Source: Candidatus Helarchaeota archaeon (GTDB lineage Archaea > Asgardarchaeota > Lokiarchaeia > Helarchaeales > RDOG01). Taken from it: 64,000 bases of DNA. Positions 44,509-47,878 of this stretch are shown one piece after another. The position numbers and the translations under genes are program-made. The notes under the pieces were generated by a model, which was given only the letters and a program-made list of their open reading frames with translations, was not told where the DNA came from and searched no databases. The first letter of the stretch is position 1; the number at the start of each line of letters is the position of its first letter. The stretch covers positions 64,001 through 128,000 of the forward strand of contig JAHPZH010000007.1 of NCBI GenBank assembly GCA_019058315.1. Reading direction: 5' to 3'.

Positions 44509-44721
44509 TAATTAATAAATACACATTTTCTTTTTTTTTATGAAAATTTTTTAAGAATGAATTATAAAAATAATAGTAAATTTCCATTGGAAAAAACAAA
44601 TTATTAAGAGTTTATTCTTATATTTTTCGTAAGATTTTTAAGGGAGGAACTCTTTCTAACTTTTAAATCTTTCGATAAAGATTTAAGTAAAGTTTATTCT
44701 GTTTTTTGAGGTGTTTCTAAA

Positions 44722-45687
44722 ATTTCACACGAAAATAACTCCTTCTTAGAGAAAACAGACGATTTCAACTTAAATGACGATGAAAGTTCAATTTGTCCGG
44801 AATGTGGGAGTGTAGAAATTACTAATGATGTAACTCGTGGAGAACTTATTTGCAGAAATTGTGGAATGGTCATAAGTGAAAAGCTTATTGATCAAGGTCC
44901 TGAATGGAGAGCTTTTAACTTAGAGGAAAGGGATAAGAGAAGCCGTGTTGGATCCCCTTCAACTTATACTTTACATGATAAAGGTCTATCTACTATGATA
45001 GATTGGCATGATAAAGACTCTTTTGGAAAAAAATTAACTCCTAAAAGGCGAGCACAAATCTATAGATTGAGAAAATGGCAAATACGAACAAGAGTTCACA
45101 GTTCTATTGATAGAAATTTGGCAATAGCTATGAGTGAATTGGATAGACTCAGTAGTCAATTGGGGATACCACGTGGTGTGAAGGAAAGCTCTGCTGTAAT
45201 TTACAGGAGGGCTATTGAGAAAAAACTCATAAGAGGTAGATCTATTGAAGCTATGGTGGGTGCCTCAATTTATGCTGCCTGTCGTATGAGAAAAATTCCA
45301 CGAACTTTAGACGAAATTGGTCGACACTCAAGGGTCAATAAGAAGGAATTGGGTAGATGTTATCGATTAATTTTAAGAGAACTAGATGTTCAAATTCCTA
45401 TCGCCAGTCCAATTGATTTTATTCCCCGTTTTGGCGCAGAATTAGCCCTTTCTGGACGAACTCAACGAAGAGCTGCCGAAATAGTAAACCAAGCACGAAA
45501 AACTGGTTTAACTGCAGGAAAAGATCCTACAGGTTTAGCTGCAGCTTCGATTTATATTTCTGCTATACTAGAGGGTGAACGAAGAACTCAACGAGAAATT
45601 GCAGAAATTGTTCACGTTACGGAAGTTACAGTTAGAAATAGGTATAAGGAATTAGTAAGAGAGCTTAAACTTAGAGTTGATGTGTAG
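44722..45687 (+). CDS. tfb: Transcription initiation factor IIB (TFB)
   Basis: [34 protein letters not shown]; Zn ribbon CPECGS...CRNCG lies upstream of first ATG (44866); ATT start at 44722 inferred. Confidence 0.95.
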
Positions 45688-45719
45688 GATTAGCCTATAC
45701 TCTTTTTTATTTTCTTATT

Positions 45720-46019
45720 TTATTGAACAACAATATTTTCTTCAGCAAAACCTTCTTTTTCTAGAACATCTTTGACTATTTGTCGATGATCACCTTGTAA
45801 CACTATATATCCATTTTTATATGATCCCCCAGCAGCACAACGACTTTTTAGTCTCACGACTAAATCCTTTAAACGGTTCTGTTCAATCCCCTCAACTATA
45901 GTTACAAGTTTACCATATTTACGCTTTTCAACTTTTATCTTAATTTCTTTTTCTTCTTTGGCTATTTCTCCACACATGCACAAATCTTTAGGTAACGAAC
46001 ATTTTGGACATATTTCTAT
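45720..46019 (-). CDS. Translation initiation factor aIF1 (SUI1 family)
   Basis: RKYGKLVTIVEG, LKSRCAAGGS, LQGDHR; conserved ICPKCSLPKDLC lies upstream of the TTG; ATA start at 46019 inferred. Confidence 0.92.
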   Translation of the reverse strand: MEICPKCSLPKDLCMCGEIAKEEKEIKIKVEKRKYGKLVTIVEGIEQNRLKDLVVRLKSRCAAGGSYKNGYIVLQGDHRQIVKDVLEKEGFAEENIVVQ

Positions 46020-46291
46020 ATCTTTTCTCTCCTGGGTCGCTTTTGAAAAAACATCTTTTTGTAATTATAATAATTCTATGTTTATTTGTTCCTTATATTT
46101 TTTATTGTACTTATTGAACTCAAATTATATAATATTTGCTTGAATTTTTAACAAATATTTGATAATTCAAGTCAATAAATATTTGTATTTGAGCAAAATA
46201 AAGTAAATGGCGCCGAATTTGAAATAAATGTATTGAAATTTGATGTGTTTAAAGTACCATTTTCAAAAAAACAAAAATTGGTGAACTAAAA

Positions 46292-47878
46292 ATAGTTAAA
46301 ACATTAATTATAGATGCATTAAGGTCTGAAAAGGGAGTAAAACGTTTCACAAGGGATTTTATCGGAGCAGGACCTCGAACCATTGCGGGAATTCTTGAAG
46401 GTTATGAAATAAACTCACAAATAGTTCACCCTGAAAATTTGAAAAAGAATGAGCTTACAGACAGTGATTTCTTATTTATAAGCGCAATGACTTTAGACTT
46501 GATAGCTGTAAGTAAAATCATTAGAAAATGGAAGAAATACAATAATAAGCCAATCCTAATAGGAGGTCCGATTACATCCAATCCATTTGATTTAAAACCA
46601 CTTGAATTCGATTTAGCTTTTATGGGTGAAAGTGAAGATACACTTGAAAAAATAATCCAGATCGGATTAAAAGATGGAAATCTGCCTTCTTATTCTAAAT
46701 TAAAAGAAATTAATGGAATATTCTACCGGAAAGATAATGATTTAATGATAAATGATACCAAATCTTATATTTCAAAGGAAACTTTAAATAACTTTCAGCC
46801 TTCGGTAGAGAGAATTACAGATTATCCTTATTATTTTATAGCAAGAGTTTATGTTGAGTGTATCCGTGGCTGTTCAAATTTTTTACGTCCAACTATTAAA
46901 CTAAACGAAAATATCGAATGTAATAATTGCGGAAATTGTAATGATAGTCTTGATAAAAGATTAAATTGTCCCCAAAACATTCCACCTGGATGTGGTTTTT
47001 GTTCAGTTCCAGCAGTATATGGGCCTCCGAGGAGTCGATATGTTTCTAATATTGTAAATGAAATTAAGGGATTAATTGGTAAAAAAGTTCGAAGATTTGT
47101 TCTTGGGGGTTCTGATTTTTTGGATTATGAAAGAGATGATCTAGTAAAACCGATGCCCTTGACTGATCCTTACCAGCCCCCTCCCAATAGTGAAAAAATT
47201 GAGGAATTATTATCCGAAATTTCTTTAATTCCTGAGATTAAGAATAAGAAAGCCTATATTTTTATTGAAAATATAAAGGCTTGTTTATTCTCTAAAGAAA
47301 TTGCGAAAATTATTTCAAAATATATTCCAAATACCTCAGTTTCAATAGGATGCGAATCAGGGTCAAATGATTATCTAAAATCGATAGGAAAACCTTCAGC
47401 AGTTGAAGATATGATCCAAACAGTCCGAATTTGTAAAGAATTTGGTATAAGAACACATTGTTATTTTATTCACGGATTGCCTAACCAAAATAGTTCTGTA
47501 TTAAAAGAAACCAAGCAGCTAATGGAAAAATTAGAAAAAATTGGAACTGATAAGATTACAATTTATAAATTTAAACCGCTTCCAAAGAGTTCGTTTGAGA
47601 AATTTGATTATAAAAGTTATAAATTATCAGAACAAATAAAAAAGTTAGCAATTAAAATTAATTATAATAGGAAATTAGCTTTAATTGGTAAAAATTTTAA
47701 AGTTATCATCGCAGAACGTCATAAAAGAAATAAAAATGATGGAATTGGATATATTCTAGAGGGCGGTCCGACAGTTTTAATCAAAAATGGAGGAAAATTA
47801 ATCGGAAAAGAAGTTAATGCGAGAATCATTCGAGTACTTTCTGATAAATTTGTAGAAGGAGAAATTAATAATCAATAA
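46292..47878 (+). CDS. Radical SAM protein with C-terminal TRAM-like domain
   Basis: RGC...CGFC, GCESGS, YFIHGLP; upstream in-frame IIDAL...DFIGAGPRTIAGILE; ATA start at 46292 inferred (ORF track 46439). Confidence 0.85.
   Translation: MVKTLIIDALRSEKGVKRFTRDFIGAGPRTIAGILEGYEINSQIVHPENLKKNELTDSDFLFISAMTLDLIAVSKIIRKWKKYNNKPILIGGPITSNPFDLKPLEFDLAFMGESEDTLEKIIQIGLKDGNLPSYSKLKEINGIFYRKDNDLMINDTKSYISKETLNNFQPSVERITDYPYYFIARVYVECIRGCSNFLRPTIKLNENIECNNCGNCNDSLDKRLNCPQNIPPGCGFCSVPAVYGPPRSRYVSNIVNEIKGLIGKKVRRFVLGGSDFLDYERDDLVKPMPLTDPYQPPPNSEKIEELLSEISLIPEIKNKKAYIFIENIKACLFSKEIAKIISKYIPNTSVSIGCESGSNDYLKSIGKPSAVEDMIQTVRICKEFGIRTHCYFIHGLPNQNSSVLKETKQLMEKLEKIGTDKITIYKFKPLPKSSFEKFDYKSYKLSEQIKKLAIKINYNRKLALIGKNFKVIIAERHKRNKNDGIGYILEGGPTVLIKNGGKLIGKEVNARIIRVLSDKFVEGEINNQ

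Follow-up and report, generated by a model that had tools for sequence, protein, structure and literature searches.

The AUU start codon of infC, which encodes the bacterial initiation factor IF3, is broadly conserved in bacteria. Previously, translational autocontrol has been reported for this AUU-initiated gene (Butler et al. 1987, as cited in PMC4705826), and eukaryotic eIF1/SUI1 has been described to regulate itself through an AUG in poor context (Ivanov et al. 2010, as cited in PMC4705826 and PMC6237735). Start-site autoregulation of a fidelity factor is thus known in bacteria and in eukaryotes. In archaea, initiation complexes of S. solfataricus bind AUG and AUU mRNAs without aIF1 and only AUG mRNA with it (PMC4705826). 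Pyrococcus aIF1 prevents the initiator tRNA from being fully accommodated before it pairs with a proper codon, and its basic loop binds the 30S subunit through residues R31, Y32, and K34 (PMC6237735); the Haloferax factor is, furthermore, essential (PMC3828320). A search of the literature, mostly non-subscription papers, turned up neither a non-AUG start nor autoregulation reported for an archaeal aIF1. The present study concerns the aIF1 gene in a 64,000-nucleotide stretch of Candidatus Helarchaeota DNA (hereafter the window). The protein itself is known; what appears to be new is a near-cognate start at an archaeal aIF1, and the circuit that it suggests would resemble the autoregulation of infC and eIF1.

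The stop-to-stop frame of aIF1 runs from 46064 to 45720 on the minus strand, and its other features are listed in Table 1. The product matches NCBIfam PRK00939 with 124.1 bits (cut-off 98) and PF01253 with 68.4 bits (cut-off 25.5), and the comparison with M. jannaschii aIF1 (PDB 4MO0) gives an E value of 4.7e-29 (residues 2-98 on 3-101). The SUI1 gene is single in the source genome (G000, 94% complete), where PF01253 has one match. Read in frame from the ATA, the N terminus carries the knuckle pattern C-x2-C...C-x-C, in which Ser replaces the consensus Gly and zinc binding is predicted. Such a four-cysteine knuckle is present in 64% of archaeal aIF1 proteins, about 36% being without the motif (PMC6237735). 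Alignment with the Pyrococcus loop indicates that the 30S-binding loop is intact, with the Tyr and the Lys retained and the Arg changed to Lys. In sum, the window encodes an ordinary, intact archaeal aIF1. Many archaeal aIF1 proteins are named 'stress response translation initiation inhibitor YciH' at NCBI, after the bacterial homologue.

Table 1. Features of the aIF1 locus and of its two neighbours, in window coordinates
Feature	Position	Strand	Remark
aIF1/SUI1 coding sequence	45720..46019	-	99 aa counted from ATA
In-frame TAA closing the aIF1 frame upstream	46065..46067	-	from the reading frame
Codons of the N-terminal zinc knuckle (Cys4, Cys7, Cys14, Cys16)	45972..46010	-	motif form as in PMC6237735
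Basic loop KRKYGK, predicted 30S-binding loop	45909..45926	-	from alignment with the Pyrococcus ARYGK loop
ATA start codon (strongly supported)	46017..46019	-	three codons 5' of the first Cys; invariant in relatives
Shine-Dalgarno AGGAG	46029..46033	-	9 nt upstream of ATA; complementary to the 16S 3' end
First canonical codon TTG (Leu13), rejected as start	45981..45983	-	codon 13, inside the knuckle
Convergent neighbour TFB, apparent ATT start	44722..45687	+	Shine-Dalgarno GAGGTG at 44708-44713; outside the proposed circuit
Divergent neighbour, B12-binding radical SAM, apparent ATA start	46292..47878	+	Shine-Dalgarno GGTGA; outside the proposed circuit

An earlier note on this DNA had proposed the ATA start from the letters alone, and its reading of the locus was correct: the knuckle begins upstream of the first TTG, which falls in mid-knuckle, the frame holds no ATG, GTG, or TTG between the upstream TAA and this TTG, and the ATA does lie behind an AGGAG. 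The 16S 3' end of the genome reads GAUCACCUCCUA. GGAG placed 7 to 11 nt upstream of ATG forms the genome's Shine-Dalgarno (SD)-to-ATG peak, and the spacer of aIF1 lies within this peak. Initiation at the TTG would cost two of the four knuckle cysteines. The same note had named an ATG>ATA error, ATG in orthologues, and a true N terminus at the TTG as ways in which the proposal could fail, and none of the three held where sequence allowed a check. A separate assembly also reads ATA (Logan contig SRR14802573, 100% identical to the window over 3923 bp); close orthologues have ATA at this position and none has ATG; and the TTG is unconserved, being TTA in the same-family genome G001. The Logan contig perhaps stems from the genome's own sample, and therefore the relatives bear most of the weight against a sequence error.

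The ATA is fixed in seven same-family sequences (72-100% DNA identity where measured). Beyond the Logan contig, six further same-family sequences, five of them distinct at the 5' end, all carry it in the same position. The SD region, AGGAGAGA, is invariant across five aligned relatives, where the flanks diverge. The G001 gene has a TAA only two codons before the ATA, which leaves no alternative start there. Synonymous sites of aIF1 are saturated among the relatives, and the ATA is nonetheless fixed: none of the 29 columns with an invariant residue of at least three-fold degeneracy holds a single codon in the family, and each of the six other conserved Ile positions uses more than one codon, whereas the first ATA never changes. 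These comparisons indicate that the first ATA is constrained as a nucleotide triplet and not as an isoleucine. Codons 2-12 hold 13 synonymous variants against 2 amino-acid variants among the relatives, which argues that the stretch upstream of the TTG is translated. In other archaea, this cysteine is preceded at a distance of three or four codons by the ATG of aIF1. The recorded gene call of one relative (GCA_048887025.1) begins at the ATA and gives 99 aa; most other database entries of the family have 85 aa and start at the Met15 codon (ATG 45977), a column in which most other families have Val or Ile. Taken together, the alignments strongly support the ATA as the real start of the window aIF1 and not a sequence error.

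Two other candidates near the start were rejected. A second ATA (46013) is too far from the SD (15 nt) to fall within the spacing peak, and it varies among ATA, ATT, and ATC; an out-of-frame mini-ORF (ATG 46011, 7 codons), considered as a decoy, is unconserved in relatives. RNA structure across the aIF1 start does not rise above chance (z 0.54). A special initiator tRNA was not seen among the 27-37 tRNAs found, an incomplete set, and the Met-type tRNA genes found have the ordinary CAT anticodon. Outside the window, contig C3 of the source genome carries a tight one-strand array of about 17 tRNA genes, many with introns (~627500-631800), which contains a Met(CAT) gene with A1-U72 and three G-C pairs in the anticodon stem. 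On contig C5, the 16S 3' end with its following bases occurs in two copies (~370 and 5099) that differ by one base, possibly an assembly duplication.

How far the trait extends was judged by a strict test that accepts any in-frame ATG, GTG, or TTG from the upstream stop to the first conserved residue (for aIF1, within 25 codons). The Asgard set comprised 104 aIF1 genes with knuckle from related genomes, picked by match score and family and not randomly. Thirty-seven of them, in nine families, are without a canonical start; a further 19 have GTG or TTG only, and 48 have ATG. The figure of 37 is conservative, since five genes of family f4 have their sole canonical codon (GTG) inside the SD. The best start calls for the 37 are ATT (19), ATA (10), CTG (6), and ATC (2), at -3 to -9 from the cysteine and every one behind an SD-like site. 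Within Asgard, the weakness of the aIF1 start is, by these calls, retained while its codon and position shift.

None of 113 non-Asgard aIF1 genes is without a canonical codon, in a set made of the best-scoring matches of an even draw, not a random sample, which covers the Nanoarchaeota group, Thermoplasmatota, and Thermoproteota. An ATG is available in 32 of the 33 Nanoarchaeota-group genes (the other has GTG), in 26 of the 30 from Thermoplasmatota, and in 40 of the 50 from Thermoproteota. One Thermoplasmatota gene probably starts at CTG (L309), and seven similar Thermoproteota genes start at TTG behind AGGTGA (L337-L343, L346), so that weak aIF1 starts may have arisen outside Asgard too. Three Thermoproteota genes that had seemed to be without a canonical start have an ATG further upstream and were set aside. 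ATG is thus the aIF1 start in about half of the Asgard families and in nearly all other archaea sampled. The suggestion in the earlier note that this is the archaeal equivalent of the IF3 and eIF1 circuits does not survive as a pan-archaeal trait, as 48 of the 104 Asgard genes and most of the non-Asgard ones have ATG.

For comparison with other genes, 40 genomes were placed on one ribosomal-protein FastTree tree, and 21 ribosomal-operon genes served as control. A canonical start is missing from aIF1 in 16 of the 40 genomes, with nine changes on the tree, a count in which kin are not independent, deep branches are weak, three genomes have few sites, and gain and loss are not distinguished. Among the ribosomal-operon genes, which are highly expressed and favour ATG, it is missing from 9 of 659, with at most four cases and two changes for any one gene; four eL32/uS19 cases that arose from the 40-codon window are excluded from this count. 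The maximum belongs to uS14, which has ATT or ATA behind an SD-like site in four f4 genomes (L122, L123, L126, L127) and is thus a second recurrent case, confined to that family. Other initiation factors are likewise canonical, with 0 of 30 aIF2-beta and 1 of 29 aIF1A genes lacking such a start, and in the 28 genomes with an ATG-less aIF1, 390 of the 449 ribosomal-operon genes (87%) do have ATG. Furthermore, when G000 and G001 are compared over 191 orthologue pairs, aIF1 is the sole gene without a canonical start in both; four other genes lack one in one genome only.

By these comparisons, non-canonical starts set aIF1 apart from the control genes, and they do so repeatedly within Asgard, as autoregulation predicts. 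ATG in three outgroup phyla suggests repeated gains of the weak start within Asgard as the simpler reading. The pattern as a whole gives good support to selection for a weak aIF1 start. The gene thus has the two features of the IF3/eIF1 type that sequence can show, a weak start of its own and conservation of that start above the gene background.

We consider it probable, by analogy with IF3 and eIF1, that the near-cognate start puts aIF1 under its own negative feedback. The good SD would hold the 30S complex so that AUA occupies the P site, and the initiator tRNA (CAU) would pair with it leaving a third-base mismatch. On such codons, aIF1 would block full accommodation of the tRNA. With abundant aIF1, initiation on its own mRNA would be rejected; with scarce aIF1, the AUA would be accepted and more aIF1 made, and this negative feedback would keep start-codon stringency at a set point. 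In other words, aIF1 should reject an mRNA that combines a good SD with a near-cognate codon, and its own gene is so built. That the Asgard protein rejects AUA in vivo, and that this rejection closes the loop, we infer from published discrimination that concerns AUU in a crenarchaeon, the codons here being AUA or CUG and the protein an Asgard one. Among the strongly SD-led genes of this genome, ATG accounts for about 60% of starts, TTG for 31%, and GTG for 5%, and about 43 of about 1035 (~4%) appear to start at near-cognate codons (an excess over expected; loci L386-L405). With near-cognate and TTG starts at such frequencies, the policing of AUA may be weak in this genome, and the feedback would then be shallow. 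The ATG at 48 of the 104 Asgard and nearly all non-Asgard aIF1 genes further suggests that the loop is dispensable elsewhere. A broader scenario, in which several Asgard lineages independently wired aIF1 feedback, the loop sets a permissive stringency to which some tens of other near-cognate genes (TFB, metabolic enzymes) respond together, and the poor-context autoregulation of eIF1 descends from such a circuit, is conceivable but appears unlikely.

The main rival is fixed dosage tuning, in which the weak start would have been selected solely to keep aIF1 low and AUA initiation would not respond appreciably to aIF1. Sequence comparison gives the same prediction for both, namely the same conservation of the ATA and the same excess over the control genes, and low aIF1 would suit a genome with so many near-cognate and TTG starts. 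However, a weaker SD or promoter would also cut output, yet the SD is kept and it is the codon that is changed. If aIF1 rejects near-cognate codons here as it does in Sulfolobus, feedback would follow automatically. Moreover, genomes whose aIF1 lacks ATG do not use GTG and TTG more often in the ribosomal operon (51/449) than genomes whose aIF1 has it (37/210). We therefore regard pure dosage tuning as a serious though rather unlikely account, and keep feedback as the preferred reading.

Neutral drift would hold that start selection is relaxed in AT-rich Asgard, that ATG has decayed to ATA or ATT at many genes, and that aIF1 is among them by chance. The genome as such agrees with this. Ahead of the first canonical codon, SD sites are followed by ATT 43 times against 16 expected (p 1e-8), by ACG 8 times against 1 (p 7e-6), and by CTG 6 times against 1 (p 2e-4), the excess of ATA being marginal (19 against 12). 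At least eight other genes need a near-cognate start by their Pfam boundaries: 2-hydroxyacid dehydrogenase, AroD, PFOR alpha subunit, FAD oxidoreductase, a DRTGG protein, a small GTPase, a CYTH protein, and the adjacent TFB. Both neighbours of aIF1 appear to have near-cognate starts, and uS14 shows the same in its four f4 genomes. With near-cognate starts at ~4% of its SD-led genes, a lone ATA says little in this genome.

The other near-cognate starts that were followed up are, however, labile in the sequences compared, unlike the ATA of aIF1. In TFB, the Zn ribbon (PF08271, residues 24-65) begins before the first ATG (codon 49, 44866), and a start there would lose most of it. The TFB start is ATT in one relative (L245) and TTG in another (L246), and none of 29 other Asgard TFB genes is without a canonical start. 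A joint aIF1-TFB weak-start module was considered and rejected on account of this lability. The ATA of the radical SAM gene lies 49 codons 5' of the called TTG, and 26 identities with the G001 orthologue fall upstream of the first canonical codon; the G001 orthologue has a canonical start. For the 2-hydroxyacid dehydrogenase, three homologues of the same order have ATG. Further against drift, the ATA of aIF1 stays fixed despite saturated synonymous sites, the strict background is ~1% of genes whereas aIF1 is without a canonical start in 16 of 40 genomes, and five families (f7, f10, f12, f17, f18) have no ribosomal-operon starts of this kind. Drift thus seems to suit the genome at large, yet neither the fixation of the weak start at aIF1 nor its recurrence there agrees with it, and we consider it improbable as an explanation of this start. 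Least of all do we expect the ATA to be no start at all, through sequence error, RNA editing to AUG, a special initiator tRNA, or a truncated protein from TTG 45983 or ATG 45977: the 85-aa database entries and the archaeal aIF1 proteins without the knuckle would agree with this, and against it stand the identical Logan contig, the conserved ATA and SD, purifying selection on the knuckle codons, the loss of the TTG in G001, the Val or Ile at the Met15 column, and the ordinary CAT anticodon of the Met-type tRNAs in the incomplete set, which make it very improbable.

Other observations concern gene order. Between the convergent ends of TFB and aIF1, a short hairpin followed by a T run (45682-45700, plus strand) looks like a terminator. 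The window aIF1 stands alone beside TFB, and the same arrangement occurs at two Bathyarchaeia loci (L334, L335) with an ATG start. In a Methanomassiliicoccales genome (L303), the ribosomal operon includes aIF1, flanked by uL29 and Rpp29, an arrangement that was not seen in the Asgard operon regions L115-L154.

The policing of start codons by aIF1 so far rests on in vitro evidence, and the Asgard aIF1 start offers a ready test of it in vivo. There is also a practical side to this finding. Standard gene callers drop the zinc knuckle of aIF1 in these lineages (for example, by starting at ATG 45977, which gives 85 aa), and they also shorten dozens of other Asgard proteins.

In comparison with the aIF1 proteins of M. 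jannaschii, P. abyssi/P. horikoshii, and S. solfataricus (4MO0, 5ZCY, PRK00939), the window protein is alike in being full-length, with knuckle and basic loop; for those proteins, no non-canonical start or autoregulation is described in the literature examined. The likeness to infC is that a start-codon fidelity factor has, on its own mRNA, a near-cognate AUH start preceded by a Shine-Dalgarno site. The IF3 and aIF1 folds, however, are unrelated (PMC4705826), and where infC has AUU, the Asgard aIF1 codon varies by lineage (AUA, AUU, AUC, CUG). Furthermore, the aIF1 trait is patchy within one phylum and shared with other genes, and its feedback is a proposal by analogy. With eIF1, the likeness is closer in kind, as an orthologous SUI1-family protein has a weak start site on its own mRNA. 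Here too the proteins differ, aIF1 having the zinc knuckle and lacking the acidic loop 2 of eIF1 (PMC6237735). The weakness also lies in different places: eIF1 keeps its AUG and relies on a weak Kozak context during scanning, whereas Asgard aIF1 has a weak codon and keeps its SD.
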